Sequence record: NC_048002.1
DNA: 39,883 nt
Direction: 5' to 3' (one strand)
Source: Escherichia phage SRT7
Shown here one piece after another: positions 2,945-37,886 of this stretch (positions within the stretch are counted from its first letter, which is position 1; each line of letters starts with the position of its first letter). The notes below the pieces were generated by a model. The model was not told the DNA's origin and did not search any database. It saw only the letters and a list, made by a program, of their open reading frames with translations. A program made the position numbers and the translations under genes.

Positions 2945-2992
2945 GCATTCATAAAGGCCACCACATGTAGTGACCTTGAGTATGCCTATCAG
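2945..2992 (-). promoter_or_regulatory. RNase III-type processing hairpin (R18.5-like), overlaps gene 18 stop
   Basis: Minus RNA CTGATAGG...AAGGTCAC-loop-GTGGCCTT; 8-bp upper stem; same motif family at 25527, 36021, 37847. Confidence 0.5.
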
Positions 2993-3261
2993 TTGAGCGT
3001 TGGTCGCTCGTCTTCGGTTAGACCATCGGAGCCTACCTGAGCGTTATAGTCGCCAAGTGCTCCAGCCAGTCCACCAAGGATGTTTGCATCAGGTTTCAGC
3101 TTAGCAATCTGGAACTTATGGCGCTCCAGCAGTTTACCTATGGCGTTATAGAGCTGAGGGGTTCTACGCTCAGGGTTCTGTAGGTCCATCAGCATCTGCT
3201 GTGCCATGTTGGTGTCCAGCATCTCAAGGAGAGACATAAGGGTTGCATCAGGTTTACTCAT
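2989..3261 (-). CDS. gp18: Terminase small subunit (T7 gp18-like)
   Basis: 90 aa; LLEMLDT...PQLYNAIGKLLERHKFQI matches T7 gp18. Confidence 0.9.
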   Translation of the reverse strand: MSKPDATLMSLLEMLDTNMAQQMLMDLQNPERRTPQLYNAIGKLLERHKFQIAKLKPDANILGGLAGALGDYNAQVGSDGLTEDERPTLN

Positions 3262-3460
3262 TGCGACCTCCTAATTCCATCTTCTTGTACTCAAGCCACT
3301 TGTCGAACATCTTGGAGCCAATCTGCACGAGGGTGTAGACGATAGCCGCCACGTAGAACCATTCGTTCAACGATAGGCCCCAAAAGGTACGCAAGGCGAC
3401 ATCTCCAGCAGCAGCCGCAGGAATGGCAATCGTACCATTGTTAAAATCCAATGACATCAT
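3254..3460 (-). CDS. gp17.5: Holin (T7 gp17.5-like, class II)
   Basis: 68 aa; MMSLDFNN...GLSLNEWFYVAAIVYTLVQIG matches T7 gp17.5. Confidence 0.88.
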   Translation of the reverse strand: MMSLDFNNGTIAIPAAAAGDVALRTFWGLSLNEWFYVAAIVYTLVQIGSKMFDKWLEYKKMELGGRNE

Positions 3461-3523
3461 GTGTCACCTCCTTATTGTGTGGGACTATCCGTGTCCCTGC
3501 TCGTGTTCCTTACGTTTGATTGA

Positions 3524-5359
3524 TTACAGAAGTTCCAGAACCTCCACCTTCTGTACCGGTCCTGCGGTACTCGACTGAAGCATCCTAATTGACGTCTCGG
3601 AAGGAGCATCATACTGCTGGCTCCAGCTACCCATCTGTGTATAGATTCTGATTCCCGGCTCAGGTAGGATTATGCCTACAACACTCTTTAACCCCGTGCC
3701 GGGGATGAAGTGTAGTCGCAGGTGGCGGTTGATAATATTCTCACCAAGGTCAATCTCCCCTTGGGATACTCCAAACGACCCCTCATACAATGTTCGTGGA
3801 GTATATTGGGAGAGTTTCACACGGTTCTCCAGAGAGAGGGTGCGGTTAGTCAGCTCAGTATACACCTGCTCGACTCGTGAAGCTAACACAGCGGCATCCA
3901 CCGAACCCGGATTGTTGACAACACCATGAGTCCTGATAACCCAGACAATCACGATGCCATTCATACGGGCTTCATTAATGTCCTTCTTGTATACGTCGTT
4001 CCACAGTGACGCGTCGAAACCTAACTGAGCACCACTGGTATCGTTAGTTGCACCTTTGTTGGAGCGCCCAGCGTTGTAGAATGCACCAGAGGCACTGGAG
4101 GCCAGCTCATTATCGGCAAGTGCAATCAGACCCTCAATGTTTGGTAGAGCTGACTTCTGAACGTCACCTACAGTAAACCCAGCGTCACCACGGAACACAG
4201 GAGCCTTAATGGAACCCGCATAGACACCGTTGAGGTCAGGTACGCGGAAAGTGGTCGTACCGTTACCTAAGGTATAACAACCACGTTTACCGGGGTCAGA
4301 CAGCCATACGGCGTCAGAGACAACCGGGAGGCGTCCTGCCAGTAACTCAGCTACTAGTGCAGGGAACTGGTTGCGGTTCAGCAGTTGACCGTCCCCATAC
4401 ACTGTACCCGGCTTAGCGTAAGTACGAGAGTTGTGGACCTCAAACTCACCAACCTGACGTACAGCCACTCCGTTAATCCGGTCAACCAGAGTGTTAAACT
4501 GAATTAGCTTATCGGATTCAGTCTTTGCGTTACTTGCAGATGTCGCAGCGTTGCCCTCAGATACAGCGGCCTGTTGAGCAGACGTGTTGGCTGCATCGCG
4601 GTAACCCATAGCGTCGTTGGCGTAACCACCAGCACGGTCAGCCTGTGCCTTAGCGTTCGCTACTTGTGCCTGAGAGTTACCCGCAGAGGTTGCAGACGCA
4701 TTAGCGCTATCCTCAGAGGTCAACGCCCAATGCTTAGCGGAATACTGACTGGAGACCACAGGTGTTCCTTTAGGGTTCTCAGCCCACTTCTGGGCTAACA
4801 GCTCGGAAGCCTTTGAGTTTGTCTCAGAGGTCTTGGCGTTGGTCTCGGACACCTTGGCTTTATTGGCGCTGTCGGCAGCACTACCAGACCAACGGTTCAT
4901 CTGGCCTACGGTAACAACGTCACCAGCGTCCACACCATCTGCCACGTTAACGATACGACGACCACGACCATCAAGGTTGCCATCGTTGTTAACGCCAATG
5001 GTATCAGCGGTCAGGTCTCGCGCTTCTTCAGCAACGTGCAGGGTCTGAATCTGAGATACGTTAAGGTCTGTAGCTCGCAGGATGGAACCATCACTGAAGT
5101 CAACCAGACGTTCACTTGCAGAAGTGTATCGACGAATCTCAATCTGTTGATAGTTATCGGCTGGGCCCCATGCCTTAGTCGTAGATATAAGGTTGCGGGT
5201 AGCGAAGCGATAATCGGTCACAACAACCAGCTCTTTACGGTCTTGACCAATGAGCGTTACCACCACGAACTTACGTGACAGGTACTCAAAGGGAATCGCA
5301 AAGTCAGTCGTGGTGCCATCTAATGGGTACGTATAAACTGTCTTAATGACGTTTGCCAT
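3524..5359 (-). CDS. gp17: Tail fibre protein (T7 gp17-like N-terminus, divergent C-terminal domain)
   Basis: 611 aa; N-terminal ~150 aa closely match T7 gp17; AGGAGG RBS; phi17 promoter upstream. Confidence 0.9.
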   Translation of the reverse strand: MANVIKTVYTYPLDGTTTDFAIPFEYLSRKFVVVTLIGQDRKELVVVTDYRFATRNLISTTKAWGPADNYQQIEIRRYTSASERLVDFSDGSILRATDLNVSQIQTLHVAEEARDLTADTIGVNNDGNLDGRGRRIVNVADGVDAGDVVTVGQMNRWSGSAADSANKAKVSETNAKTSETNSKASELLAQKWAENPKGTPVVSSQYSAKHWALTSEDSANASATSAGNSQAQVANAKAQADRAGGYANDAMGYRDAANTSAQQAAVSEGNAATSASNAKTESDKLIQFNTLVDRINGVAVRQVGEFEVHNSRTYAKPGTVYGDGQLLNRNQFPALVAELLAGRLPVVSDAVWLSDPGKRGCYTLGNGTTTFRVPDLNGVYAGSIKAPVFRGDAGFTVGDVQKSALPNIEGLIALADNELASSASGAFYNAGRSNKGATNDTSGAQLGFDASLWNDVYKKDINEARMNGIVIVWVIRTHGVVNNPGSVDAAVLASRVEQVYTELTNRTLSLENRVKLSQYTPRTLYEGSFGVSQGEIDLGENIINRHLRLHFIPGTGLKSVVGIILPEPGIRIYTQMGSWSQQYDAPSETSIRMLQSSTAGPVQKVEVLELL

Positions 5360-5399
5360 GTGGCCTCCTTATGAAAACTAGAGGGAGGACGTGATTGCC

Positions 5400-5421
5400 T
5401 CTCCCTATAGTGTGGGTTAAT
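5400..5421 (-). promoter_or_regulatory. Phage RNAP promoter (phi17-like)
   Basis: tctccctatagtgtgggttaat on plus strand, i.e. consensus promoter on minus strand. Confidence 0.88.
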
Positions 5422-5423
5422 GA

Positions 5424-8400
5424 TTACCAGCGCTCTGAACGCTTAGGTCGCTCGGTTGTGTAGATGTGCTCTTCGAAAGCACCCAGAAGTAGTCTCTGAG
5501 TAATCGGGTCGTTCGGGAGAACTTCCTTCATATTCTGATAGACACCTGTAGTGAACTCCGTGGAGTCGCGAGGGCCATTGGCACCTCCGAGGTTCCAGAG
5601 GTTCTGACCGAGAGACACCGTAGAGCCAACGTAGTTAGCCACAGGGAACTGTTGACCAATAGCACCCATCAGCTCAGCCGTACCGGAACGACCAGAGGAA
5701 GCCTTGTTAGGGTCTCGCTGTGGTGCATCCTTAGGACTGATAGTGGTACGCATGTACTGACTAGGGGTTAGACCTAATGGGCCAAGTAGCATATCGGCTA
5801 CACCTAATGGCGCACCAGTGATAGAGCTTCGGGAGGCCGCAGCGTAGGTAACCATCTCAGGCGATAAAGCCTTGAAGAGATAGGCCTCACGTTGGTTCTC
5901 AGGAAGACCAGCAGCTTTCATGTGTGACTGCATCACATAGAACGAACCAGCCAACATTCCAGAGATACCAGTAGACAACGCAGCATCCATAGCTCGACCA
6001 TCTCGAGTCGCCTGATAGTAAGTACGTAGGGTCTTACCATTGAGGGACTTAATGACGAACGTCTTAAACTGGAGAGCAGCACCCACAATCGGGCCCAACT
6101 GTTTCACGTTCTGAGCGTTCAGCTTGGAAGGACGAAGCATGGTCTCATCGGCTACCTTGTCAGCCATACGCCACAAGTCCATAGCCCGAGGGTCAAGGCT
6201 CATTGCGTGTTGGTCTGGGAAGCTCCACTTACCGTTAGCGTCCACCTTGGCGTGGTCTTTGAGGAACTGAATGATACCCTTGGACTGCTCAGGCGTGATG
6301 CTGGCAGACTTCAGGAAGTTCTCATTGAGCCACTTGGATGACTTACCAGTCGCAGCGTGTTCAATCAGGTTCCCAATGAGACCCTGACGTGCAGCGCTAA
6401 GCAGGTAGTTCGTGGTGCCTTGTAGCAGCTTACTCATAGGCCACGCAGCGGCAATCTCCTGAGTCCCGAACTTAAGGGAACCCAGAGCGTTTGCACCGAA
6501 TGAACCCATACCAGAGTTGTCACGAAGAGACTGAATGAGGTCTGCCCGTTGAGGGCGAATCATATTGTCCACTTCACGACCCATCAAGCCATACTCCAGC
6601 TTCTGAAGGTCAGTCCCGGAGACAGCCTTAGTGGAACGCATCATGTCACGAACCACAGGGATACCGTGGAACAGAGCACGAACGTTACCCTTGGCAATCA
6701 TACCACCAATCTCCGTCAGGTTCAGAAGACCCATGTAGGCGTTCTTAGCGACAAAGCTCAGGTCTTTAAGAACACCCATAGCCATGTCCACAGCGCCGTT
6801 AGGGTCACGACGAGCACGACCAGTGAGTAACTTCACGGTATCTTCGAGGGCGTTAGCGTCCTGCTTCAGCTTACCGGAAGGGTCACTCTTGGCTCGCTCA
6901 CGGATAGCGGTAATCTTATCCAGCAAGTCCTGAGTAGTCTGACCCGTAGAGTGAATCGCAATGTCACCATTGGTTCGACGGGCATAATTACGCAGCAGCT
7001 TGTTAGCGTCAAAGCTACGAAGGTCATTCAGGGAGAACATCGTACCATCTGGCAGTTGAGACTTGAAGCCCATGCTAAACCCATGACGGCTCTCAAGGAA
7101 GTTGTTCTTCCCGAGGTTCATAGAGTTCGACGCAGAGGCGATATCGTCCAGTGCAAGGTTGGTAGTAAACTCACCATTTACAATACCGAATGCCTTATCA
7201 TTGGCCCACTTCTCAACCATCTCAGGTGTAACTGCGGCTGGGCTATCCAGACCGTTCTTAGCGGCTACCATCTCGTCTACCACAGACTTCGTGTTAGGGT
7301 TGGACGCATAGTCAGCCAAGAAGTGGCGCTGCATGGCACCTTGAGCATCCTCAATGGAGTTCCCAAAGACATTACGGAATGCAGCCACCTTCTCAGGTAC
7401 ATAAGCCACCGGGAAGTATTTGCCGCTAAGTTTCGTCTTGTTCATCACAGGGATTGCTTTAGGGTTACCGAACATCGCAGGGTTAGACATAGCGTCTTCC
7501 TTGCTGGTGGTGAACCGGAAGATTTCATCACGCAGCTTGGATTCACCCTTGGTCAACTTAGAGACGCCAATACCATCTTCCTGTGCTTCCACTGCACGAC
7601 GCACCACGGTCTCACGTGCCAGAGCATCCCCACGGTTAGCGCCCATAGTCCACTCAGGGTCTTTGATTGCATCACGTGTGAACTGCTCAATAGCCGTTAG
7701 GTCGGACGTATCGGTGTAGTGCAGACGCTCAGCCACGTCAGAGGCAACCGTACCGGACTTACCGGAGCCGCCTTTAACGTAACCTGTAGTGGAACGCAGG
7801 AGGTCATAGGCAACACCACGGACTTCATCGTCGGCAGAGCGAGACAGGTGCAGGGAGATATCGGTCATGGAACCCATACGTACACCCATAGAGCCCTTAG
7901 TCACCTCAGGGTCTACCGAAGCAAACTGAGAGGCACTATTAGGGTTCAGAGGGTTACTGGTTGACAGCACTTGACCATCCGGCAGGACTACTTCGCCACT
8001 GTCGAGGGTTGCATATTGAGAGCCATTCGGAGAGGTCTTAAAGTCCAGACCCTCGGTACTCACAGCAGAGTTATCCGGTAGGCCACGCATGGCTGCATCA
8101 CGAGACTCAGCGCGAGCTGTTGCCGCAAGGACGCTCTCAGCTTCACGAGGGTTGGCACGATGTAACACACCAGTCAGGCCAGCACCGAACAGTAAGCCAC
8201 CACCAGCCGCCATCATGTAGTCTGCATGTCCACCACCAACACCCACACGTAAACCTTCAGAGGCTACGTTCAGAGCACCAGCTTGAGTACCTACAGTCAC
8301 CATACGACGACCTAGGGAGATACCCTTGGAAGCCGCACCAGCAATCGGGATGTAGCTCACAGGGTCTACAGCAGCACCAGCGAGAGCACCCACGAGGTGG

Positions 8401-9386
8401 GCACCCATACCAGCATCGGCTACAGAGTCCTGACGGTCCTGACGTTCCTTAGCCAGCTTAATCATCTCATCGAGAGTCTCAGCGTTGGACCCAAGGACAG
8501 ACTGAGCGTACTCAGCACGAAGACCACTCTCACGAATCTTTTGGATATCATCAGGAGTGAACGTGTAGCTGTTCCACTTGGATGGTGTAATAGTTGCAGA
8601 CCAAACGTCATACCCGTTGTCGCCAAGGGCTGCATCAGCCATCGTAGCTAGAGCGGAGTTCTGTACCTCAACCTTAGCCACGTCACCAGTCTTATAGAAT
8701 AACCCTTTGTCAGCTCCCTGAGGCTTATAGTTCTCCTCTGGCTGGTCGTTCTGTACTGCCCACGTATTGGCAGCAGTACGTTCGTTCAATTGGTCATACT
8801 TAAGGTTAGACGTGTCCATGTTGACGCTTGCAGTCTCTGGACCGGGAGCCCCACGAGTTACCTTAGAGGCTGGGGCTTCGACCTCATAGATTCCCTTTGC
8901 GAAGTCACCGAACTTCTCAATGGCTTCTGAGCGCAGGGACTTAGCGGAACCTACCAGTTTACGGATGTACAGGCGACCTTCATCACCAATGCTACCGTAG
9001 TCCTGCTTATCGTAGGCTTCAATCTGAGGCATACCAGTCGGGCCTTCCCCAACGTTATACATCAGGGCGGCTCGCAGCTCATCACCATTAGACTTCTTAA
9101 CGAAGCCAGCAAGCAACTTAGCAGCAGCCGGGATTGCTTTCTCAGGGTTGTAACGGTCATCAGCCGGGTTGTCCTCTTTGAAGACATTGAGTCCCATAGC
9201 CCGACCAGTACCAGCAGTCATCTGCATGATACCCTTAGGTCCTGTAGGTGACTTAGCGTTAGCGTTAAAGCTGGACTCATTGAACGTTAAGTGTCGAAGG
9301 AGGTCATAAGAGACCCCGTTGGCATCGGCAGCTTGACGAATCAGTCCATCGTATTGGTTAGGGATAGTTTTGTCATATTTAGCCAT
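5424..9386 (-). CDS. gp16: Internal virion protein D (T7 gp16-like) with N-terminal lytic transglycosylase domain
   Basis: 1320 aa; N-terminus MAKYDK...GLIRQAADANGVSYDLLR matches T7 gp16. Confidence 0.92.
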   Translation of the reverse strand: MAKYDKTIPNQYDGLIRQAADANGVSYDLLRHLTFNESSFNANAKSPTGPKGIMQMTAGTGRAMGLNVFKEDNPADDRYNPEKAIPAAAKLLAGFVKKSNGDELRAALMYNVGEGPTGMPQIEAYDKQDYGSIGDEGRLYIRKLVGSAKSLRSEAIEKFGDFAKGIYEVEAPASKVTRGAPGPETASVNMDTSNLKYDQLNERTAANTWAVQNDQPEENYKPQGADKGLFYKTGDVAKVEVQNSALATMADAALGDNGYDVWSATITPSKWNSYTFTPDDIQKIRESGLRAEYAQSVLGSNAETLDEMIKLAKERQDRQDSVADAGMGAHLVGALAGAAVDPVSYIPIAGAASKGISLGRRMVTVGTQAGALNVASEGLRVGVGGGHADYMMAAGGGLLFGAGLTGVLHRANPREAESVLAATARAESRDAAMRGLPDNSAVSTEGLDFKTSPNGSQYATLDSGEVVLPDGQVLSTSNPLNPNSASQFASVDPEVTKGSMGVRMGSMTDISLHLSRSADDEVRGVAYDLLRSTTGYVKGGSGKSGTVASDVAERLHYTDTSDLTAIEQFTRDAIKDPEWTMGANRGDALARETVVRRAVEAQEDGIGVSKLTKGESKLRDEIFRFTTSKEDAMSNPAMFGNPKAIPVMNKTKLSGKYFPVAYVPEKVAAFRNVFGNSIEDAQGAMQRHFLADYASNPNTKSVVDEMVAAKNGLDSPAAVTPEMVEKWANDKAFGIVNGEFTTNLALDDIASASNSMNLGKNNFLESRHGFSMGFKSQLPDGTMFSLNDLRSFDANKLLRNYARRTNGDIAIHSTGQTTQDLLDKITAIRERAKSDPSGKLKQDANALEDTVKLLTGRARRDPNGAVDMAMGVLKDLSFVAKNAYMGLLNLTEIGGMIAKGNVRALFHGIPVVRDMMRSTKAVSGTDLQKLEYGLMGREVDNMIRPQRADLIQSLRDNSGMGSFGANALGSLKFGTQEIAAAWPMSKLLQGTTNYLLSAARQGLIGNLIEHAATGKSSKWLNENFLKSASITPEQSKGIIQFLKDHAKVDANGKWSFPDQHAMSLDPRAMDLWRMADKVADETMLRPSKLNAQNVKQLGPIVGAALQFKTFVIKSLNGKTLRTYYQATRDGRAMDAALSTGISGMLAGSFYVMQSHMKAAGLPENQREAYLFKALSPEMVTYAAASRSSITGAPLGVADMLLGPLGLTPSQYMRTTISPKDAPQRDPNKASSGRSGTAELMGAIGQQFPVANYVGSTVSLGQNLWNLGGANGPRDSTEFTTGVYQNMKEVLPNDPITQRLLLGAFEEHIYTTERPKRSERW

Positions 9387-9404
9387 CTCAGGGTCTCCTT
9401 ATGG

Positions 9405-12781: not shown

Positions 12782-12807
12782 AATGTAATCCTCTTATGAA
12801 TTAGGTC

Positions 12808-12829
12808 TCTCCCTATAGTGTGGGTTAAT
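12808..12829 (-). promoter_or_regulatory. Phage RNAP promoter (phi13-like)
   Basis: Consensus 22-mer on minus strand. Confidence 0.88.
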
Positions 12830-12853
12830 GCACACCACAAGGAGAGCCTATTG

Positions 12854-15895: not shown

Positions 15896-15938
15896 CAAAA
15901 AACCCCTCAAGCATCCCGAAGGACACCCAAGGGGTTTC
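15896..15938 (-). terminator. T-phi-like terminator for phage RNAP, downstream of capsid gene
   Basis: Minus RNA AACCCCUUGGGUGUCCUUCGGGAUGCUUGAGGGGUUUUUUG: GU-rich hairpin plus U6; same position as T7 T-phi. Confidence 0.85.
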
Positions 15939-20716: not shown

Positions 20717-20803
20717 AAAGTCCTCCTTAAGTTATTGGTAATACATAATCATAAACTCTTAAATAGAACTTTAAGTAGCTTACAATAGGGTCTTTAAGTG
20801 TAC

Positions 20804-20825
20804 TCTCCCTATAGTGTGGGTTAAT
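20804..20825 (-). promoter_or_regulatory. Phage RNAP promoter (phi6.5-like)
   Basis: Consensus 22-mer on minus strand. Confidence 0.88.
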
Positions 20826-20846
20826 ACACAAAGACCCTATAATCAG

Positions 20847-25498: not shown

Positions 25499-25526
25499 AA
25501 TTTGTACTCCTTTGTAATTAATAGAT

Positions 25527-25570
25527 AATCATAAAGGCCACCTTTCGATGACCTTGAGTTTACCTATCAG
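25527..25570 (-). promoter_or_regulatory. RNase III-type processing hairpin (R4.7-like)
   Basis: Minus RNA CTGATAGG...AAGGTCATC-GAAA-GGTGGCCTT, 9-bp stem with GNRA-like loop; overlaps stop of upstream ORF. Confidence 0.5.
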
Positions 25571-25845
25571 CTACTCAGCTCATCCAGATACGCCTTAGCG
25601 AACGCTTTGGTACGCGCTTCATCACGTTCTGGGATTGCTTTCTGTACTTGCTTGGTCAGGAGACCTAACAGGCGAGCTGCCTGAGTGTCATCTAACGTGG
25701 TACGTTGAGTGTGCATTTTCGGTGACGTACGGTCCTTCCAGCGGTAGACCATAGTGACCTTACCATTACGGACGTTAACGTGGATGCGACGATTGAAGTG
25801 GTCAACCGTATCGGACAGGTGCAGGGTCTGGGATGATTTAGACAT
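25567..25845 (-). CDS. Hypothetical protein (92 aa) at gene 4.5 position
   Basis: ATG with TAAGGAGA RBS; stop embedded in conserved CTGATAGG motif. Confidence 0.65.
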   Translation of the reverse strand: MSKSSQTLHLSDTVDHFNRRIHVNVRNGKVTMVYRWKDRTSPKMHTQRTTLDDTQAARLLGLLTKQVQKAIPERDEARTKAFAKAYLDELSS

Positions 25846-29231: not shown

Positions 29232-29239
29232 GGTAGACC

Positions 29240-30794: not shown

Positions 30795-31053
30795 TGATAA
30801 TCTCCTTTACGGTTGCAATGAACAGACGAACGCGAGGCCACTTTGAGACAACAACTGGTACTTCCGGGCGCTCACCTTTGGAGGCACTAACCAGAAGACC
30901 ATTGGTCATAATTGCGTGGACGCTAGGCGCGAACGAATGGAACGTACCGAAGCGAGGAATCTTGGCGTGTTTCTCGGAGGCGAACGCAGTTGAGCGGTCT
31001 ACCCGTCGAGCGCTAAAGATACCGTTGGCTTTGTTGAAGTGTAAACGAATCAT
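30787..31053 (-). CDS. Hypothetical protein (88 aa) at gene 1.6 position
   Basis: Same length as T7 gp1.6; RBS GGAGAAC; overlaps gp1.7 start. Confidence 0.65.
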   Translation of the reverse strand: MIRLHFNKANGIFSARRVDRSTAFASEKHAKIPRFGTFHSFAPSVHAIMTNGLLVSASKGERPEVPVVVSKWPRVRLFIATVKEIIND

Positions 31054-31063
31054 AATGTTCTCC

Positions 31064-31150
31064 TTATGGTGGCGTTAAGTCATCGTCATTGTCAGTAAGT
31101 GACAGAATGAACAACATTAAGAATGCAATAGATAACACGAAATTTATCAT
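31064..31150 (-). CDS. Small hydrophobic peptide (28 aa) at gene 1.5 position, speculative
   Basis: MINFVLSIAFLMLFILSLTDNDDDLTPP; ATG 7 nt after GGGAGA start of phi1.5 transcript. Confidence 0.4.
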   Translation of the reverse strand: MINFVLSIAFLMLFILSLTDNDDDLTPP

Positions 31151-31157
31151 AACGTAG

Positions 31158-31179
31158 TCTCCCTATAGTGTGGGTTAAT
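31158..31179 (-). promoter_or_regulatory. Phage RNAP promoter (phi1.5-like)
   Basis: Consensus 22-mer on minus strand. Confidence 0.88.
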
Positions 31180-31182
31180 AGG

Positions 31183-31296
31183 CTAGTCATCTAGTGGGCA
31201 GTAGTCGGACAGTTTGTCTTTAGCCCACTTGTGGCCTACCCAAAGTCCAAATATGAATACCAGCACGAGGCTGAGCGAGATTTCTAAAGGTGTCAT
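31183..31296 (-). CDS. Small membrane-type protein (37 aa) at gene 1.4 position, speculative
   Basis: MTPLEISLSLVLVFIFGLWVGHKWAKDKLSDYCPLDD; AAGGATT RBS. Confidence 0.45.
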   Translation of the reverse strand: MTPLEISLSLVLVFIFGLWVGHKWAKDKLSDYCPLDD

Positions 31297-31311
31297 AGCG
31301 TAATCCTTAAG

Positions 31312-31357
31312 TTGTAGAAACGACAAAAGGCCCACCCGTTAAGGTAGACCTTTTAGC
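31312..31357 (-). terminator. Hairpin plus U-tract after ligase gene (TE-like early terminator candidate)
   Basis: Minus RNA AAAAGGUCUACC-UUAACG-GGUGGGCCUUUU then GUCGUUUCU; 12-bp stem with GU pairs; stem resembles the RNase III hairpin family. Confidence 0.6.
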
Positions 31358-31360
31358 GTC

Positions 31361-32422
31361 TTACATCTTCACCGTTGGGTCACTTTCAGTCCCTCGCCAG
31401 CAATCCCAGCTAGGGTGACGGAGCGAGCCATCTTCGGTGTATTCCATGAACTTTACTTGGCATTGCCAGCCCTCGTAGGGGTTCATGTACCAGCATCCAG
31501 CTTCGTTAGCGTTACACTCAGTGGTGTACTCCTTAACGCGCTTCGTGAACTCGTCCATCAAATCCTGAGAGATGTTATTAGCGTCAACCGTGACACCGTT
31601 CTCAAGTTGTACTTGGAAGCCGATAACCTTACCTTCGTTAGCGAGACCCGGAGTGCCCCAATTGAGACCAACAACTACGCCATCGGCTTCGTCTTCTGGC
31701 TTCATCTTCCACCAGCCAGTTTTCTTACCGCGACGATAAGTCCCTGTTGGGTCCTTAATGATGAGACCCTCATGGCCCTCTGCACGTTTCTCTGCGTAGA
31801 GTTCGTTCAGGGACTGCATGTCATACACATCGTAGGTCTCAGCGAGTTCCCAAGAGACTTCAGGGAAGTGGTCACGCAGCACCATAATCATCTGCTGACA
31901 GTGGACCTGCATTAAGCAGTTCATCACGTCGATATCTTCACCAGACTCAACTTTGTCGAGCGGCAGGATAGCATAGAGGCGAACGCACAGGTGCTCAACG
32001 GAGAGGTTGAATGGTTGCTTGTTCTTAGACTTCCACACATCGTGGAACACACGGTGCTCGGTGAACTCAAAGTTGTTCAGCTTGAGCCACTTGGTACGCA
32101 GCAATCCAGAGCCCTTCTGGAACGACACACCTTTGACCATCAGTTCACCATCAAGCATGAACCCTTCCGGGTAAATCCAGCGGTCATCCTTCAGGAGCTT
32201 CTCCCAGCGACGGTCGTAACCGTTCAGGTGCTCCAGTGCAGGGATGGTCTTCGCTACACGGGACAGCCACAGGCCACGAGCGTCATCGGCTACCACAATG
32301 TTACCACGAACGCCATCATACTTAACGTCAGCAATAAGTGAACCGTTCTTCTCAAGAGCTTTCTCTACGGCAGACTGGACGAAACTTACAGCTTTATATG
32401 GGTTGGTTTTAATAGATGTCAT
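31361..32422 (-). CDS. gp1.3: ATP-dependent DNA ligase (T7 gp1.3-like)
   Basis: Start at ATG 32422 (MTSIKTNPYKAVSF..., 353 aa) overlapping gp1.2 stop; KYDGVRG adenylation motif; matches T7 ligase. Confidence 0.93.
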   Translation of the reverse strand: MTSIKTNPYKAVSFVQSAVEKALEKNGSLIADVKYDGVRGNIVVADDARGLWLSRVAKTIPALEHLNGYDRRWEKLLKDDRWIYPEGFMLDGELMVKGVSFQKGSGLLRTKWLKLNNFEFTEHRVFHDVWKSKNKQPFNLSVEHLCVRLYAILPLDKVESGEDIDVMNCLMQVHCQQMIMVLRDHFPEVSWELAETYDVYDMQSLNELYAEKRAEGHEGLIIKDPTGTYRRGKKTGWWKMKPEDEADGVVVGLNWGTPGLANEGKVIGFQVQLENGVTVDANNISQDLMDEFTKRVKEYTTECNANEAGCWYMNPYEGWQCQVKFMEYTEDGSLRHPSWDCWRGTESDPTVKM

Positions 32423-32643
32423 TGTTTGATTTCCTTCATGAATTGTGGGTTGTATTGCTCGATGATTTTCCATGCGTATAACTTAGCGGTAGTCTCGCCA
32501 TCTTTCGCATAAGGTTGTTCGAGACGTCCAAGCTCAAGGCCGAACGCATCACAAATAACTGTAACGTGCAACATCCGGCAATCGTCATAGTACATGATCA
32601 TTTCCAGACCAGTGAACCAGAGTGCATCTTTCAGGCTAACCAT
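32419..32643 (-). CDS. gp1.2: gp1.2-like protein (dGTPase inhibitor family)
   Basis: 74 aa; position and YYDDC motif resemble T7 gp1.2 (IYDDW). Confidence 0.6.
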   Translation of the reverse strand: MVSLKDALWFTGLEMIMYYDDCRMLHVTVICDAFGLELGRLEQPYAKDGETTAKLYAWKIIEQYNPQFMKEIKQ

Positions 32644-32653
32644 AAGTCACCTC

Positions 32654-32842
32654 TCAGTAGTCGCGGTATTGTTTACCACAGGAAGTGTACTTGCGTTCCA
32701 TCTTATCGGCAATGTGGTCGAAGACTTCACGCTTCTCAGAGCGGTCAGCTTTACGGTCACGCTTGTTTAACTTAGCGCCTTTACGACCAGTGAAACCTTC
32801 AGTTGGAGCCTTGCGAGTGATGCGCTCGAAATTGGTATTCAT
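32654..32842 (-). CDS. gp1.1: gp1.1-like basic protein
   Basis: 62 aa, lysine/arginine rich; NFE...GRKGAKLNKRDRK resembles T7 gp1.1. Confidence 0.7.
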   Translation of the reverse strand: MNTNFERITRKAPTEGFTGRKGAKLNKRDRKADRSEKREVFDHIADKMERKYTSCGKQYRDY

Positions 32843-32882
32843 AATGTGTTCCTTAAAGTGTTCGAAAGGGGAGAGCGGATTG

Positions 32883-32904
32883 TCTCCCTATAGTGTGGGT
32901 TAAT
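32883..32904 (-). promoter_or_regulatory. Phage RNAP promoter (phi1.1B-like)
   Basis: Consensus 22-mer; transcript 5' end can form GGGAGA-loop-UCUCCC hairpin. Confidence 0.88.
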
Positions 32905-32908
32905 ATAC

Positions 32909-33187
32909 TTAGCGGGTGGTCTCAATAACTATGCGACCGAGTACATCATGCTTCTTAAAGATGAACTCTTTACGAGACCCATCGGTGTGCGTCTGTGTCA
33001 GTACATACAGCAGAGGACCTCGTGGGGACCACTTCAGTTTACTGACTGTCTTGCCGCAAGGCCCAAGTCCCAACACAAAGTCTGTCTTGTGGAGGCGACC
33101 ATCAGGCTTCACAGCATAGAACAGCACGCGGGTAACTTTAGGTATCTTAAAGAGTTTCTTTAGGTATGAAAAGATTGAAGTAATCAT
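32909..33187 (-). CDS. Hypothetical protein (92 aa) between the two phi1.1-type promoters
   Basis: ATG at 33187 with GAGG RBS; no counterpart in recalled T7 map. Confidence 0.55.
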   Translation of the reverse strand: MITSIFSYLKKLFKIPKVTRVLFYAVKPDGRLHKTDFVLGLGPCGKTVSKLKWSPRGPLLYVLTQTHTDGSRKEFIFKKHDVLGRIVIETTR

Positions 33188-33203
33188 GTTTGTAAACCTC
33201 GTT

Positions 33204-33242
33204 GGTTAACTTTAAGTATCTTTATGTTTAACTTTAAGTATT
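33204..33242. repeat. AT-rich segment with two copies of TTAACTTTAAGTAT downstream of phi1.1A (candidate primary origin region)
   Basis: Direct repeats at 33205-33218 and 33228-33241; position mirrors the T7 primary origin. Confidence 0.4.
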
Positions 33243-33281
33243 GGGACCATCCGGCATCGCATCTAGGCGATAGGCCATCTG

Positions 33282-33303
33282 GTTCCCTATAGTGTGGGTT
33301 AAT
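33282..33303 (-). promoter_or_regulatory. Phage RNAP promoter (phi1.1A-like; GGGAAC variant)
   Basis: Minus ATTAACCCACACTATAGGGAAC. Confidence 0.8.
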
Positions 33304-33348
33304 GATAAGACCCTGAAGATTCAAGGCCTTAGGTATTAACCGACGCTG

Positions 33349-35997
33349 TTAGGCGAACGCAAAGTCAGACTTTAAGATTTCCTGAAGATTCAGAGACCCT
33401 TTAGCTGGAATCGCTGGCATCTTCTCAAGCTGACTTTCGTGAAGCTGGTCGTAGAACTGGTCGTAGAACTCTTGGATTACGTCATGCTCCTCATAGGTCT
33501 CCACAAGGGTCTCACGTACTGCGTTAAACAGGTTGCGAGCGTCTGCGGCTACCGTACCGAAGCTATCGTGAATCAGAGCGAACGACTTAATGCCATACTT
33601 ATTGTGACCGTGCACTACCGTCTGACGCAGGTGGCTACCATCCATGCTGTGCACGAAGTTAGGCGCAATCCCGGACTCCTGTTTGTGTGCGTCAATCCCG
33701 CTATCCTTTGTTGTGTTGATGGTCAGAGCCATGCGAATCTTACCAAGGAAAATCAGGTCGAGACGCTTCTGGACTGGCTTCTTGTACTCCTGCCACACAG
33801 GGAACCCATCAGGAGTAACCCAATGTACAGCACAGCGGTTGCGCAGGATTGTCCCGTCCTTATCCTTCACCTCAGCGGCTAACAGCTTAGCAGCACTCTG
33901 GAGCCACTTCATGGCATCAACCGCAGCCACCACAGTGACACTTACAGCTTCCCAGATGAGCTTCGCCATGTAACCTGCGGCTTGGTTCGGCTGGGTAAAC
34001 ATGAGGCCCTTCCCGTTGTCAATAGCTGGACGGATGGTGTCCTCCAGTACTTGGTCACGGAAGCCATACTCTTTGGAACCATACGCCAGCGTCATGACAG
34101 AACGTTTAGTGACCCCACGGTTGACCCCAAAGGCCAGCCACTGACCAGCCAGCTCGCGAGTACCCAGCTTAGGCTTCTCGGTAATCTCACCAGTGGTCTT
34201 ATTGGTAATCACTTCGATTTCGTTGTCGGTCCCGCCGATAGCATCAGCCTGAAGACGGATGTTAACCTTGTCGGAGACGATACGATAGATATCCTGCACG
34301 GTCTCGCTCGGTAGCAGGTTAACTGCACGACCACCAACCTCATCACGCAGCATAGCAGAGAAGTGCTGAATCCCTGAGCATGAGCCATCGAAGGCCAGCG
34401 GCAGAGAGGACACGTAGGACTTACCGTGACGGAACGCTCCAGCGTACTCAAAGCAGAACGCGAGGAAACAGAACGGTGAATCTTGCTCGGCCCACCAAAG
34501 GTTCTCTAAAGGAGCCTCAGCGCAAGCCATAATATCTGCGTGGTGACTCTCAATGAAGTCGATGCGCTCCGGGAATGGGACCTTATCAACACCTGCGGTA
34601 TTCGCACCGTGAATCTTCAGCCAGTACATTCCGTCCTCACCGATAGGCTTGCCAGTGGCGAACGTCAGGAGGCCCTTTGTCATATCGTTGCCCTGTGGGT
34701 TAAACATCGGGCAAGCATACACGCGACCGCGCCAGTCTAGGTTGTACGGGAACCAGATTGCCTTAAACTGTGCAAACTTATTGGCCTGACCGAGAGCGAA
34801 CTCGAGGGACAGGCGCTTAGACACGCGAGCCTTATCCTGACGATACACGGCTGCGGCTGCTTTCTTCCACGACTTGAGAGACGCTTCATTCGTGTCGATG
34901 TCCTCAGGTTTCTCCGGGAGTTCTTTACGCTCCAGCGCTGGGATATCCTCCACCGGACAGTTCTTCCAGTTGACCACCTGATTGACGACCGCCAGAACCT
35001 TCGTGTTAATCTTCCACGCTGTATTCTGAGCGATGTTTACCGCTTCATATACCTCAGGCATAGACACATCGTTGTAGCGCATGAGAGCCTTACGAGAGCC
35101 TACACGAATCAACTGAATCGGCTTACGACCAGCCGCCCAATAGCCGCCACCTTCGATGGACGTCCAAGGTTTCGGAGGGACTACACAAGGTTGATACATT
35201 GGTGCGATTGCAGCCAGTGCCCCAGCGCGTTTACTGATAGCTTCTACCCATTCGTCAGCCAGAAAGACAAACTGACCGTCTGACTTAACGTTCCCGGCGT
35301 TCATACGCTCGACCTCAACGAGACCTGTAGACTCAATAAGCAATTCAAGCATCTTGATACCTGTGTGCTCCAGCTCCTCGGTGGTCCAGTGCTCCCACGT
35401 GGATTTAAGCTCTTTGCGCTCAATCATCTGTTTCTCTACGACCTGCATGTAAGCCTTTTTGTAGAGCAAGCCGTTGCGCTTGTTGAGCCCGTCCTCTACG
35501 TACTTCTTAAAGAACTTGGCTTCCTCATCACGGATACGACCGAAGCGTAACTCATCTTCGATTGCACGACCTATGGCGAACGCTACGTTCTGCATTGATG
35601 CCAGTTCCTGCTTGGCTACCTGTGCCAGTGTCTGCTTGACCACGATTGCCGCACAGTTGTCGGCTTTGATTGCCGCTGTGGTCTTTGTAGCTACGTGCTT
35701 ACGTCCTTTCTTCACGCGCATCTCTTCGTGCCACTCAGTGAAACGAGCAGACAACCGAGGGATTAACGTCTGGACTACACCTTTAGCCGCTGCGTTATCT
35801 GCAAACTCGCCAGCCTCAATCTGACGCTGTAACTGCTTATGGAAACGCTTCTCACCTTCCGTGTATGCCTCGTGCTCTAACTCAAGTTGAACAGCCGCCA
35901 GATGTTCGCCGTAATGGTCTGCCAATACGTTGAACGGTTCGATATCGTGTTTGATATCAGAAAAGTCATTCACTGCCGGATTAATTACGTTGCTCAT
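33349..35997 (-). CDS. gp1: Single-subunit DNA-dependent RNA polymerase (T7 gp1-like)
   Basis: 882 aa; extensive identity to T7 RNAP including catalytic HDSFGT and C-terminal FAFA. Confidence 0.97.
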   Translation of the reverse strand: MSNVINPAVNDFSDIKHDIEPFNVLADHYGEHLAAVQLELEHEAYTEGEKRFHKQLQRQIEAGEFADNAAAKGVVQTLIPRLSARFTEWHEEMRVKKGRKHVATKTTAAIKADNCAAIVVKQTLAQVAKQELASMQNVAFAIGRAIEDELRFGRIRDEEAKFFKKYVEDGLNKRNGLLYKKAYMQVVEKQMIERKELKSTWEHWTTEELEHTGIKMLELLIESTGLVEVERMNAGNVKSDGQFVFLADEWVEAISKRAGALAAIAPMYQPCVVPPKPWTSIEGGGYWAAGRKPIQLIRVGSRKALMRYNDVSMPEVYEAVNIAQNTAWKINTKVLAVVNQVVNWKNCPVEDIPALERKELPEKPEDIDTNEASLKSWKKAAAAVYRQDKARVSKRLSLEFALGQANKFAQFKAIWFPYNLDWRGRVYACPMFNPQGNDMTKGLLTFATGKPIGEDGMYWLKIHGANTAGVDKVPFPERIDFIESHHADIMACAEAPLENLWWAEQDSPFCFLAFCFEYAGAFRHGKSYVSSLPLAFDGSCSGIQHFSAMLRDEVGGRAVNLLPSETVQDIYRIVSDKVNIRLQADAIGGTDNEIEVITNKTTGEITEKPKLGTRELAGQWLAFGVNRGVTKRSVMTLAYGSKEYGFRDQVLEDTIRPAIDNGKGLMFTQPNQAAGYMAKLIWEAVSVTVVAAVDAMKWLQSAAKLLAAEVKDKDGTILRNRCAVHWVTPDGFPVWQEYKKPVQKRLDLIFLGKIRMALTINTTKDSGIDAHKQESGIAPNFVHSMDGSHLRQTVVHGHNKYGIKSFALIHDSFGTVAADARNLFNAVRETLVETYEEHDVIQEFYDQFYDQLHESQLEKMPAIPAKGSLNLQEILKSDFAFA

Positions 35998-36020
35998 TAT
36001 TGCCTCGCTTGTTTAAGAAT

Positions 36021-36072
36021 CTTCACTCTCAGAGGCCACCGCTTGGCGACCTCTTGAAGTGTAGACTATCAG
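36021..36072 (-). promoter_or_regulatory. RNase III-type processing hairpin (R1-like) between kinase and RNAP genes
   Basis: Minus RNA CTGATAG...GAGGUCGCC-AAGC-GGUGGCCUC with lower stem CACU/AGUG; overlaps kinase stop. Confidence 0.5.
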
Positions 36073-37223
36073 CCCATAAACATTGCGTCAAGACGCTTAT
36101 CAATATCAAGCGGTCTGCCCATATTGATTTGCTCTACCATTCGGTTGTGGCGCTCCACGTTCTTCTCATGGATGACCCGGATGCCGTTCCTGTGGTGAAT
36201 CTTAAGACCCTCAGGGATTGCCCACTTCACACCGCGACCACAGATGTACTTAGCGTCCGGCTTAATTCCTACCACCAGTTCCCACGCTCGGTCATCATCC
36301 TTGCGAACCATATTGGCTTTCGCTTGGCGTTCTTCACGCTCGGCTCTAATCTTAGCCAGTTGAATCTTACGGCGGCGATGTGCCTTTCGGTTCTCCAGCT
36401 TGTTCAACTTACGGAGGTGACGTTGTTGCCACTTCTCAATAGCTTCCTCAAGTTTCATCGCTTGGATTTCCTCAAGTAGCGCCTCAAAGTCTACCCGGAA
36501 GTCATCCGGCTCACCGAGACCGTTTGTGTAGCTCACCGGGTCAGTGATGACGATGTTGTCGTTATGGTCCAGCATCACGTTACCTTCATGCATGTCGAAG
36601 CCAGCCACCCCATAGAAGAACTCGCGGATGTGCGCTGCGGTTCCCTGTAGACCCTGAGTGACCTCATCGTATGCCTCGCAGAAGTCCCATGCGTCACTGT
36701 CGCGATTCAGAATCTGAGTCTTCACGATGTTGTACTGGTCGAGGACTTCAGGTGACTTTGCACTGTATGGCTTAAGGTGGTCCAGAACGACCGTGTAACA
36801 GGCATCATGTCGTGCAATCGCATGGATTACTGGCAACCCTTGTAGACCCGGATTAGCTCGGCAGAATGCAGCGTACGCAGCGCCTGAGTCTTCTTTCTTA
36901 AAGCCCACCTTAATGACGCGACCCGGCAGACTTACGTGGCTGAATACTGCACTGAAGAATCCATTCCCTAGGAACGTATAGCCCAGCTCGCGAGCCATCG
37001 CCACCAGCGAACCCCACCAGTCCTGTGAGTTAACGAACTCGGTATCGTCCACGCCACAGCCGCAATCAGTCTCGTAGTTTACAAGGTCAGCAAGAATACC
37101 CACGAGACCCGGTTGGCGTTCATCGAGTCGGTCGATAGGTAGCGCTTTCAGTGCTTTCATTCGGTACTCAAGTGCTTGATACACGGTAGGGACCACGTGA
37201 TGTGCTGCGTTCATTGGGTTCAT
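36069..37223 (-). CDS. gp0.7: Serine/threonine protein kinase, host shut-off (T7 gp0.7-like)
   Basis: 384 aa; NGHFSA/NGFFSA, RVIKVGFKKEDSGAAY, FDMH.GN, ITDPVS and C-terminal DKQLDAMLMG-type blocks as in T7 gp0.7. Confidence 0.9.
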   Translation of the reverse strand: MNPMNAAHHVVPTVYQALEYRMKALKALPIDRLDERQPGLVGILADLVNYETDCGCGVDDTEFVNSQDWWGSLVAMARELGYTFLGNGFFSAVFSHVSLPGRVIKVGFKKEDSGAAYAAFCRANPGLQGLPVIHAIARHDACYTVVLDHLKPYSAKSPEVLDQYNIVKTQILNRDSDAWDFCEAYDEVTQGLQGTAAHIREFFYGVAGFDMHEGNVMLDHNDNIVITDPVSYTNGLGEPDDFRVDFEALLEEIQAMKLEEAIEKWQQRHLRKLNKLENRKAHRRRKIQLAKIRAEREERQAKANMVRKDDDRAWELVVGIKPDAKYICGRGVKWAIPEGLKIHHRNGIRVIHEKNVERHNRMVEQINMGRPLDIDKRLDAMFMG

Positions 37224-37247
37224 TTCAGTTACTCCAGAGGTTGACTA

Positions 37248-37604
37248 TTAGAATGTTACAGATTCGTGGATTGTGCGGGTTACAGTGATGCCACCGGCAA
37301 GCTCTACAGCGTAGCGAATAGCCTCCTCTTTGGTGCGGAAGTCCCGTCCAGATACATGATAGGTGTCACCATTAACCACGTTATCAGGCTTACGGGCTAC
37401 GCTCACGGCATTAGATAGACTAAGCACTCCGTTGCGGTAATCCGTCACCCACTTATTGAGGCTCGGGACGGACACGCCAAGCTCAACAGCCAAACTTGTA
37501 GTTCCTGTCTTCCCGCGAGGGCCATCCGGTAGTGCAAGGTAACGCTGTACGGCTGCAATGCGGAAACCTACGGTGTACATAATGCGAGTATTGATGGTAG
37601 TCAT
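37248..37604 (-). CDS. Hypothetical helix-turn-helix protein (118 aa), early region
   Basis: GGAGA RBS; segment FRIAAVQRYL...GTTSLAVELGVSVPSLNKWVTDY resembles IS3 OrfA / HTH_Tnp_1-type DNA-binding motifs. Confidence 0.7.
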   Translation of the reverse strand: MTTINTRIMYTVGFRIAAVQRYLALPDGPRGKTGTTSLAVELGVSVPSLNKWVTDYRNGVLSLSNAVSVARKPDNVVNGDTYHVSGRDFRTKEEAIRYAVELAGGITVTRTIHESVTF

Positions 37605-37625
37605 TTGGTATCTCCAGAATATTAA

Positions 37626-37823
37626 TTAGTGAGTTGCTACGTAAAACATCCCGACCTTATTGGCCTTAAAGCGCCCATTCGGTTCCCGTACAGTGAATCG
37701 CGGCAGGACGTACCATTTGAAGTACGCTAGGTTCGCGCTGTGTACAATGAGACCCTTACGGAAGTCTCGCACAAAGAGAGCCACAATGGCTGCGTACACT
37801 GCTATGATGAAAGCTATAGTCAT
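37626..37823 (-). CDS. Small membrane protein (65 aa), early region
   Basis: N-terminal hydrophobic helix TIAFIIAVYAAIVALFV; GGAGACC RBS. Confidence 0.65.
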   Translation of the reverse strand: MTIAFIIAVYAAIVALFVRDFRKGLIVHSANLAYFKWYVLPRFTVREPNGRFKANKVGMFYVATH

Positions 37824-37846
37824 TCGCTAGGTCTCCATTAGGTTAT

Positions 37847-37886
37847 CTTTGAGCGCCCACCTGTGACGCTCTCGTTAGCCTATCAG
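37847..37886 (-). promoter_or_regulatory. RNase III-type processing hairpin (R0.5-like)
   Basis: Minus RNA CTGATAGG...GAGCGUCAC..GGGCGCUC; same CTGATAGG stop-containing motif as the other three copies. Confidence 0.45.

Follow-up and report, generated by a model that had tools for sequence, protein, structure and literature searches.

Four putative T7-type RNase III processing signals, each holding the stop codon of the upstream gene, in a T7-like coliphage genome

Four hairpin-forming elements on the minus strand of Escherichia phage SRT7 are most probably T7-type intercistronic RNase III processing signals, read as minus-strand RNA, with cleavage proposed by homology. The window analysed here (NC_048002.1, 39,883 nucleotides) is the complete genome of a T7-like coliphage (Studiervirinae, Foetvirus), and its genes lie on the minus strand. 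The assignment is supported by sequence, fold, homology to T7, synteny, strand specificity, covariation and placement of the stop codons. The positions correspond, as the first-pass annotation had proposed, to T7 R18.5, R4.7, R1 and R0.5: the elements lie between gp18 and 18.5, between gp4.5 and 4.7, between kinase 0.7 and the RNA polymerase gene, and in the small-ORF 0.5 region.

Gene names in the window follow the annotation of phage P1723, the closest public record (98% identity), which covers protein-coding genes only; gene context at the four hairpins comes from this annotation and from alignments with T7 (71% for RNA polymerase and 64% for gp18). An Rfam scan of the whole window returned no family at the gathering threshold, and T7 RNase III sites are apparently not modelled in Rfam. 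The T7 RefSeq and GenBank records, as served, list promoters and terminators and no RNase III sites; the T7 cut coordinates used here are therefore those reportedly given by Dunn and Studier in 1983. As a consistency check, all of these positions in T7 fall after a sequence resembling CCUUUAU and before one resembling GAUU, a motif that is also found in the window copies at 2945 and 25527.

All four elements were found on the minus strand where they had been placed. In each of them the upstream ORF (gp18, gp4.5, gp0.7 and a 40-aa ORF, respectively) indeed ends inside the element: the TGA of CTGATAG is its stop codon, and an in-frame TAG follows. Such tandem stops close only 6 of the 45 window genes, and four of these six are the genes upstream of the four hairpins. 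CTGATAG occurs seven times on the minus strand; four occurrences are gene stops with a hairpin of at least 7 bp located 11-14 nt later. The TGA-TAG sits in every case at the foot of a hairpin that consists of a lower stem, an asymmetric internal loop and an upper stem. This fold was obtained for all four copies as both the minimum free energy and the centroid structure, and it matches the folds of T7 R0.5, R1, R4.7 and R18.5, whose z-scores are similar to those of the window copies. The irregular hairpin of about two helical turns that characterizes RNase III signals of the T7 group is present in the window elements, marginally so in the copy at 37847, which has a 7-bp upper stem and a 7-nt loop.

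Several details of the original description needed revision. The pattern proposed for the whole family, CTGATAGG...AAGGTC...GGTGGCCTT, holds for the copies at 2945 and 25527, whereas the copy at 36021 reads CTGATAGT...AGAGGTC...GGTGGCCTC and the copy at 37847 reads CTGATAGG...GAGAGCGTC...GGTGGGCGCTC. Upper stems, put at 7-9 bp, measure 10, 9, 10 and 7 bp in the copies at 2945, 25527, 36021 and 37847. A lower stem had been reported as visible in the copies at 2945 and 36021; it is present in all four and longest in the copy at 25527. The boundary drawn at 37847 cuts off the lower stem of the fourth element, whose 3' arm runs to about 37835.

The R18.5-type putative site (2939..2992, minus strand), assigned from sequence, fold and a covariance model, separates gene 18 (small terminase) from gene 18.5. 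Its upstream ORF (2989..3261) ends with TGA at 2991-2989, followed by TAG; the lower stem pairs 2988-2982 with 2948-2942, and the upper stem pairs 2977-2968 with 2963-2954. The fold has a free energy of -19.7 kcal/mol (z -2.6). A T7-only covariance model (R2), built from T7's own sites and containing no window sequence, matches this copy with 47.3 bits (E 1.2e-9), and alignment to T7 R18.5 predicts a cut between 2951 and 2950, after CCUUUAU and before GAAU. The R4.7-type putative site between genes 4.5 and 4.7 (25519..25570, minus strand) is assigned from the same three kinds of evidence. The stop of its upstream ORF (25567..25845), TGA at 25569-25567, is located inside the 10-bp lower stem (25569-25560 with 25528-25519); the upper stem pairs 25555-25547 with 25542-25534, the fold has a free energy of -24.4 kcal/mol (z -5.2), and the match to the T7-only model is 54.3 bits (E 1.6e-11). 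Here the cut would fall between 25531 and 25530.

The R1-type putative site, which separates kinase gene 0.7 from RNA polymerase gene 1 (36014..36072, minus strand), is recognized by its fold and its alignment with T7 R1. Its upstream ORF (36069..37223) stops with TGA at 36071-36069. The lower stem is in two segments (36067-36063 with 36022-36018, and 36061-36057 with 36028-36024) and the upper stem pairs 36054-36045 with 36040-36031, giving -30.1 kcal/mol (z -5.1). The T7-only model matches this copy weakly (14.6 bits, E 0.55). The copy aligns position for position with T7 R1 and with 12 other phages, sharing CTGATAGTCT and GGTGGCCT with T7 R1, and its predicted cut is near 36029/36028.

The weakest and most degenerate of the four is the putative site in the R0.5 region (37835..37886, minus strand), between the 40-aa ORF and a 0.6A-like gene, which is assigned from its fold and from an orthologue in a Cronobacter phage. 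The upstream ORF (37883..38020) ends with TGA at 37885-37883; an interrupted lower stem (37882-37876 with 37845-37839) precedes the short upper stem (37871-37865 with 37857-37851), and the fold has a free energy of -20.1 kcal/mol (z -1.9). The outer 3' arm shares bases with the ribosome-binding site (GGAG) of the gene that follows, and the cut is predicted near 37848/37847. The T7-only covariance model gave no match to this copy; the orthologue in Cronobacter phage vB_CtuP_B1, located behind the same 40-aa gene, matches that model with 35.4 bits (E 3.8e-8). In a BLASTN search with the 0.5 region, informative relatives were limited to P1723 and a single Cronobacter phage, and the hairpin is kept in P1723 despite a 194-bp upstream deletion. 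The 40-aa ORF itself (37883..38005, minus strand), speculative when first called, now has independent support. It matches phrog_33188 over its full length (E 4.2e-12, 40 of 42 positions), its GTG start at 38005 overlaps the TGA of the preceding 50-aa ORF as GTGA, a GGAGG ribosome-binding site lies 7 nt upstream, and an annotated homologue (QQM14963.1) is present in Cronobacter phage vB_CtuP_B1.

RNA folding combined with covariance analysis, the check suggested at the outset, supports the two-stem RNA fold through covariation in related phages. For the R4.7 set, 99.0% of cells are paired, compared with 32-49% when the partners are slid; 10 of 19 pairs show compensation, and the observed score was reached in none of 500 shuffles. 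The R18.5 set is likewise 99.0% paired, with compensation in 13 of 17 pairs (7/7 in the lower stem), and the R1 set shows compensation in 6 of 17 pairs. Model matches in related phages lie on the transcribed strand in 254 of 255 cases (179/179 in 38 RNA-polymerase loci and 75/76 in gene-18 loci), and 75 of 80 gene-18 loci have a match that starts at the end of gene 18. A mixed covariance model (R1) also finds T7 R6.5, which was not among its seeds, with 37 bits. The concept of proximal and distal boxes for RNase III and a table of antideterminants have been published (PMC1540722). Box pairs were assessed by comparison only: the copies at 2945 and 36021 keep the GGUC/GGCC core of the mapped T7 sites, and the conserved U-G wobble in this core argues for a constraint on RNA rather than on DNA.

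Among other explanations, the one that survives best, although we regard it as very unlikely, is that the hairpins do no more than stabilise 3' ends or cause pausing, or act as weak intrinsic terminators, uncut by RNase III and similar to the T7 sites in structure only. The strong upper stems, behind which comes a short U run (CCUUUAU), would suit such elements, and downstream of the ligase gene a sequence-related element (31355-31324) does have the look of a terminator, its 14 pairs leading into UUUUGUCGUUU. However, a terminator scan that lists this TE-like element, as well as a Tphi-like one at 15924-15902, lists none of the four elements; moreover, a terminator has no use for a lower stem with covariation on the two sides of an internal loop, and homology to mapped T7 cleavage sites is strong at the sequence level.

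Still less probable is the proposal that TGATAG(T/A)CT is kept as the extended -10 of a host sigma-70 promoter, as in T7 minor promoters C and E, with the hairpin being incidental. In T7, the starts of the annotated E. coli promoters C (+1 at 3113) and E (+1 at 36836) are 7-8 nt downstream of TGATAGTCT and TGATATACT, sequences within T7 R1 and R18.5, and ahead of window gene 1 one can recognize by eye, as in T7 promoter C, TTGACG, a 17-nt spacer and TG-a-TAGTCT, a combination below the scan threshold. Yet the sigma-70 scan called nothing promoter-like at the four elements; in three of them the sequence is TGATAGG(C/T), not a -10 hexamer, and a promoter would leave the hairpin, the covariation and the strict placement of ORF stops unexplained. 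A sigma-70 promoter is, at most, a second function of the R1 copy.

We give equally little credence to the copies being DNA-level repeats (recombination or module boundaries, or remnants of duplication) that have no RNA function and carry the stop codon along: model matches are strictly on the transcribed strand, compensatory changes keep the pairing while the sequence changes, and the opposite strand would have A-C mismatches in place of the G-U pairs. Many T7-like phages do have two or three early-region copies of the R0.5 type, some with approximately 20 nt of the preceding coding sequence also duplicated, and copy identities within and between genomes are similar (55-74%), which makes orthology and paralogy indistinguishable and the homogenisation test uninformative; a function as a DNA boundary would be compatible with RNA processing but is no substitute for it.

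A stop codon within the hairpin is an ordinary and widely conserved trait of these sites that is already present in T7 R0.5, R1 and R18.5, and it is not new; our text searches of the literature found no paper that takes up this position of the stop in T7 RNase III sites. Stop and upper stem are 3-20 nt apart in about 100 related sites. Of 29 R1 sites, 28 have a distance of 13-14 nt; it is 7-20 nt in all 31 R4.7 sites, and mostly 7-8 nt in R0.5-type sites. For R18.5 it is 7 or 11 nt in 8/8 sites from polymerase loci; most of the 44 distinct gene-18 sequences have these values too, with four outliers at 8-26 nt. In related phages, 37% of such hairpins have the motif TGATA[AGT] in the 22 nt upstream of them, versus a background expectation of 1.6%, an enrichment of approximately 24-fold. 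TGATAG as such is not required, because T7-like R4.7 sites use TAA without a tandem partner.

If the four elements are RNase III signals, the long polycistronic phage transcripts would fold locally into two-stem hairpins of approximately 20 bp whose internal loop is asymmetric. A single cut by host RNase III would then follow CCUUUAU, or the equivalent sequence, on the 3' side of this loop. The upstream mRNA would keep the upper hairpin as its 3' end, where it would serve as a stability determinant, and the downstream mRNA would acquire a new 5' end, located 24-60 nt ahead of the start codon. Single-strand cleavage by RNase III is known to leave 3' hairpins that act as stability determinants (PMC3867540). 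The upstream gene extends right to the element: its stop falls within, or borders on, the 5' arm of the lower stem and is 11-14 nt away from the upper stem. A stop ahead of the upper stem would let ribosomes terminate before they unwind the protective upper hairpin. Such ribosome clearance, or a fail-safe provided by the tandem stop, may be the reason for the placement; simple genome compaction could give the same layout.

It seems unlikely that the stop in the 5' arm of the lower stem is a selected coupling device and not just the result of tight packing. If it were, a terminating ribosome would transiently melt the lower stem, cutting by RNase III would have to wait until the last ribosome is gone, and the tandem stop TGA-TAG would keep read-through ribosomes out of the protective upper hairpin; stop codon, processing site and 3' hairpin would together form a portable end-of-gene cassette, spread with small early genes by recombination. 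Several T7-like phages contain multiple R0.5-type copies, each of which closes a small ORF. These copies, the narrow stop-to-stem distances and the enrichment of TGATA[AGT] fit a coupling device or cassette without proving it. For this phage, the sites provide a map of likely mRNA processing points that can be used in annotation, transcript-stability modelling and engineering. For T7-like phages, they yield a rule drawn from more than 100 sites: there is covariation in both stems, and the stop codon of the upstream gene is found 3-20 nt ahead of the upper one; this comparative rule extends a textbook system and does not change it.

The family in the window exceeds four: a fifth member and three weaker candidates, all absent from the first-pass annotation, were identified. 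The fifth member is an R1.1-like site just after the RNA polymerase gene (33297..33341, minus strand), recognized by its fold and by its location at the position of T7 R1.1. Its upper stem is UAAGGCCUUGA/UCAGGGUCUUA, and its lower stem is GGUUAAU/AUUAACC, the 3' arm of which constitutes the first bases of the phage promoter at 33299 (-20.5 kcal/mol, z -5.8). There is no stop codon inside it; the TAA of the RNA polymerase gene is 17 nt before the upper stem. This site was a seed of mixed model R1, and the T7-only model gave no match to it. A candidate R0.3-like site ahead of gene 0.3, encoding SAM hydrolase (38785..38876, minus strand), is a longer hairpin ending in CCCAUUAUGAUAAUCAC, with fold z -2.0 and weak matches to the mixed model R1 (15 bits, E 0.15) and the T7-only model (13.8 bits, E 0.95). 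Fold and layout suggest a candidate R6.5-like site between genes 6 and 6.5 (20785..20840, minus strand), a long hairpin that encloses a phage promoter and matches mixed model R1 weakly (E 3). A candidate R13-like site between genes 12 and 13 (12802..12850, minus strand), a hairpin of approximately 20 bp that also encloses a phage promoter, is proposed by resemblance only. No counterpart of R1.3 or R3.8 was seen in the window.

In their 1983 account of T7, Dunn and Studier reportedly described signals R0.5, R1, R4.7 and R18.5, with R0.3, R1.1 and R1.3 belonging to the same sequence family. The T7 early precursor has five processing signals (PMC3867540), and T7 RNase III signals are named in the literature (PMC6938266, PMC3867540). 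The hairpin at the R1.1 position of the window differs from T7 R1.1 in having another stem sequence (AAGGCCUUGA/UCAGGGUCUU), a lower stem formed from the start of the phage promoter and no stop codon. The hairpin between window genes 6 and 6.5 spans a promoter in the way that T7 R6.5 does, and at T7 R13, compared by fold and layout, a hairpin encloses a promoter between genes 12 and 13 as it does in the window; both window hairpins were identified by resemblance only, and their architecture is unlike that of the four stop-containing elements. Stops of T7 genes 0.4, 0.7 and 18 take the form TGATAG or TGATAT in or adjoining the lower stem (gagTGATAGac at R0.5, gcTGATAGTc at R1 and cagTGATATac at R18.5). 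The window has C-TGA-TAG at all four elements, whereas T7 has a single TAA at R4.7 and TGA-TAT at R18.5. The 0.5-region copy of the window follows the phrog_33188 gene, not T7 gene 0.4, and its upper stem is shortened to 7 bp. In the copy at 25527, the upper stem AAGGUCAUC/GGUGGCCUU has next to the predicted cut the same pairs as T7 R1.1, namely AAGG/CCUU, then UC/GG, then AU/GU. Lower-stem sequences differ between the window and T7, with compensation. Gene neighbourhoods, the two-stem hairpin and the asymmetric internal loop are common to the window elements and T7 R0.5, R1, R4.7 and R18.5; the T7 sites have the same architecture and sequence, ACUCAAGGUC...GUGGCCUUUAU followed across the cut by GAUU, and the core ACUCAAGGUC...GUGGCCUUUAUGAUU with its conserved U-G wobble is shared by the window copies and T7.

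In each of the four minus-strand elements (the copies at 2945, 25527, 36021 and 37847) the upstream reading frame ends within the element: the TGA of CTGATAG is its stop codon and an in-frame TAG comes next. The genes terminated in this way are gene 18 (2989..3261), gene 4.5 (25567..25845), the kinase gene 0.7 (36069..37223) and a small 40-aa ORF ending at 37883, all on the minus strand. Tandem stops are rare in this genome (6/45 genes, four of the six at these elements), and TGA is the stop codon of 13 of the 45 genes. The first-pass annotation had located the elements correctly in the window sequence and had recognized the enclosed stops; its limit for the 37847 copy was too short, since that element runs further 3'. 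Folding revealed a lower stem, an asymmetric internal loop and an upper stem in all four (z scores against dinucleotide shuffles of -2.6, -5.2, -5.1 and -1.9, in the order above), including the two copies where no lower stem had been reported. Upper stems, proposed to have 7-9 bp, were computed as 10, 9, 10 and 7 bp, and the literal consensus proposed for the family is present in two copies and absent from the other two.

All long ORFs of the window lie on the minus strand in the gene order of T7, with 71% identity to T7 for RNA polymerase and 64% for gp18. A 4-kb piece is 97.9% identical to Escherichia phage P1723 (Autographiviridae, Studiervirinae, Foetvirus) and 70-77% identical to hundreds of T7-like phages. 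An exact direct terminal repeat of 175 bp occupies both ends (1-175 and 39709-39883) of the window, which is the complete linear genome of a T7-like phage. A phage promoter core, ATTAACCCACACTATAGGGAGA, also recurs twelve times on the minus strand (39402, 33299, 32900, 31175, 30036, 26182, 20821, 18289, 17259, 12825, 5417 and 583); it differs from both the T7 consensus TAATACGACTCACTATAGGGAGA and that of T3.

Of ten T7 cleavage sites considered, seven (R0.3, R0.5, R1, R1.1, R1.3, R4.7 and R18.5) have in common ACUCAAGGUC...GUGGCCUUUAU directly followed by GAUU, and these seven were used as seeds of a T7-only covariance model, with which the window was searched with filters off. Strong matches were the 4.7 copy, at 54.3 bits (E 1.6e-11), and the 18.5 copy, at 47.3 bits with an E of 1.2e-9. 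For the gene-1 copy the score was weak (14.6 bits, E 0.55), yet in every column this copy can be aligned with T7 R1 and with R1 sites from a dozen further phages. The 0.5-region copy went undetected by this model across the whole window, and is a weak, marginal member of the four. In Cronobacter phage vB_CtuP_B1, a more distinct site of the T7 type lies behind the homologue of the 40-aa gene (35.4 bits, E 3.8e-8 with the T7-only model) and shares the flanks ACGAGAG...CUCAAAGAU(U/A)ACC with the window copy. The standing of the 0.5-region copy as a putative RNase III site rests on this orthologue. At the vB_CtuP_B1 site (L122 517-585) the gene homologue actually stops at a TGA lying 3 nt further upstream, with the GTGATAG of the lower stem in another frame; thus, the motif can persist as a stem arm without being a stop.

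The speculative 40-aa ORF itself is supported independently of the hairpin. It starts with GTG at 38005, overlapping the preceding stop as GTGA, with GGAGG 7 nt upstream; it matches phrog_33188 over its full length (E 4e-12), and its homologue in vB_CtuP_B1 is annotated. In P1723, 194 bp corresponding to window 37913-38106 (minus) are absent (about 1761-1838), with GACA microhomology at the flanks. What remains is the beginning of the 50-aa ORF joined to the last part of the 40-aa one, a 25-aa fusion that keeps the same ending, CTGATAGG plus the hairpin.

A mixed model seeded with five window sites and the seven T7 sites was searched in 38 RNA polymerase-gene loci and 80 gene 18 loci, all from IMG/VR; T7 R6.5, which was not a seed, was recovered as a control. 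All 179 matches in the polymerase loci fell on the transcribed strand, and a match began at the end of gene 18 in 75 of the 80 gene 18 loci. Compensatory changes were found in the R4.7, R18.5 and R1 sets. Among 22 distinct sequences of R4.7 orthologues, standard pairs occupied 99.0% of cells (32-49% when the 3' partners were slid by 1-3 columns), both-sided changes occurred at 10/19 pairs, and the covariation score was reached by none of 500 shuffles. The 19 R18.5 sequences were likewise 99.0% paired, with 13/17 pairs compensated, including all seven of the lower stem, none of them broken; in the R1 set, 6/17 pairs were compensated. The conserved U-G wobble in GGUC/GGCC and the strict strand bias together point to RNA, not DNA, structure.

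We measured the gap between the end of the stop and the base that opens the upper stem, using matches preceded by an ORF of 45 codons or more. It is 13-14 nt in 28 of 29 R1 sites (context CTGATAGT or CTGATAAG) and 7-20 nt, with a mode of 13, in all 31 R4.7 sites, mostly after a single TAA. R18.5 sites of the polymerase loci have 7 or 11 nt (8/8), as do most of 44 distinct gene-18 sequences (four outliers, 8-26 nt), mostly in the context GTGATATA; R0.5-type sites mostly have 7-8 nt, with GTGATAGG or GTGATAGA. In 63 of 171 matches (37% versus 1.6% expected) a TGATA[AGT] precedes the upper stem by no more than 22 nt, and in 57 of these 63 it terminates an ORF that is 40 codons or longer. The stop-in-element arrangement is thus conserved and general across the family; the hexamer TGATAG is common at these sites, yet not obligatory.

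Early regions of many T7-like phages (L004-L041) contain two or three consecutive R0.5-type sites, for example L019 1579/1935/2228, L018 6919/7238 and L029 5113/5430, and in some cases about 20 nt of preceding coding sequence is duplicated too. Since each of these serial sites ends a small early ORF, they suggest that R0.5-type sites mark junctions of small-gene gain or swap.

The first-pass annotation overlooked a fifth family member, an R1.1-like hairpin (33297-33341, z -5.8) located 3' of the polymerase gene; the opening bases of a phage promoter form part of its lower stem. Further minus-strand candidates, likewise missed, are a weak R0.3-like hairpin (38785-38876) and long hairpins that enclose phage promoters where genes 6 and 6.5 (20785-20840) and genes 12 and 13 (12802-12850) meet, with layouts resembling T7 R6.5 and R13.

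Polycistronic T7 transcripts are cleaved by E. coli RNase III at such hairpins, the internal loop imposing cleavage of one strand, and the 3'-end hairpin that remains stabilizes the upstream mRNA (PMC3867540); recognition involves a proximal and a distal box (PMC1540722). The window phage also has a gene for the 0.7 kinase, which in T7 is described as stimulating RNase III (PMC4858673). Homology, synteny, strand bias and covariation make a well-supported case for interpreting the four elements as RNase III sites, with cleavage predicted between about 2951 and 2950, 25531 and 25530, 36029 and 36028, and 37848 and 37847. Such cuts would give genes 18.5, 4.7, 1 and the 0.6A-like gene leaders of 24-60 nt. 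With genes packed up to the element and translation stopping 7-14 nt before the upper stem, ribosomes would terminate without unwinding the protective upper hairpin, and the TAG after a leaky TGA may act as a fail-safe. Much the same stop placement would be expected from plain genome compaction, and we therefore do not claim selection for coupling of termination and processing.

An improbable rival reading is that the stop motif is kept as part of host sigma-70 promoters. In T7, transcription from the annotated minor promoters C and E, used by the E. coli polymerase, begins 7-8 nt downstream of TGATAGTCT and TGATATACT, the stop-codon motifs of R1 and R18.5 (3078-3113 and 36820-36836 in T7, L003), so that there the motif also serves as an extended -10. 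A C-like arrangement is kept before window gene 1 (36072-36100, minus; TTGACG, 17 nt, TG-a-TAGTCT), but a simple sigma-70 scan made no call at any of the four elements, the gene-1 copy included, and three of the four have TGATAGG, not a -10 element, at this place. A terminator scan found none of the four terminator-like, while detecting real TE-like and Tphi-like ones. The TE-like intrinsic terminator (31324-31355, minus), directly after the ligase gene, has a stem AAGGUCUACC...GGGUGGGCCUU resembling RNase III upper stems, but then UUUUGUCGUUU; the Tphi-like one (15902-15924, minus), after the capsid gene, is a 10-pair stem, then TTTTTTGC. DNA-level repeats are excluded as the main explanation: the strand bias, the G-U pairs and the compensatory changes all speak against them.

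Similar stops are found in T7 itself. The ten cleavage coordinates, attributed to Dunn & Studier 1983, always fall 3' of UAU or its equivalent in the T7 sequence. Gene 0.4 terminates as gagTGATAGac within R0.5, gene 0.7 as gcTGATAGTc within R1 and gene 18 as cagTGATATac within R18.5, while the TAA of gene 4.5 is directly 5' of the R4.7 lower stem. As these T7 genes end likewise, the window elements are counterparts of known T7 sites, stop included. They belong to a well-known kind, for which T7 already shows the stop-in-stem detail and its relatives share it.
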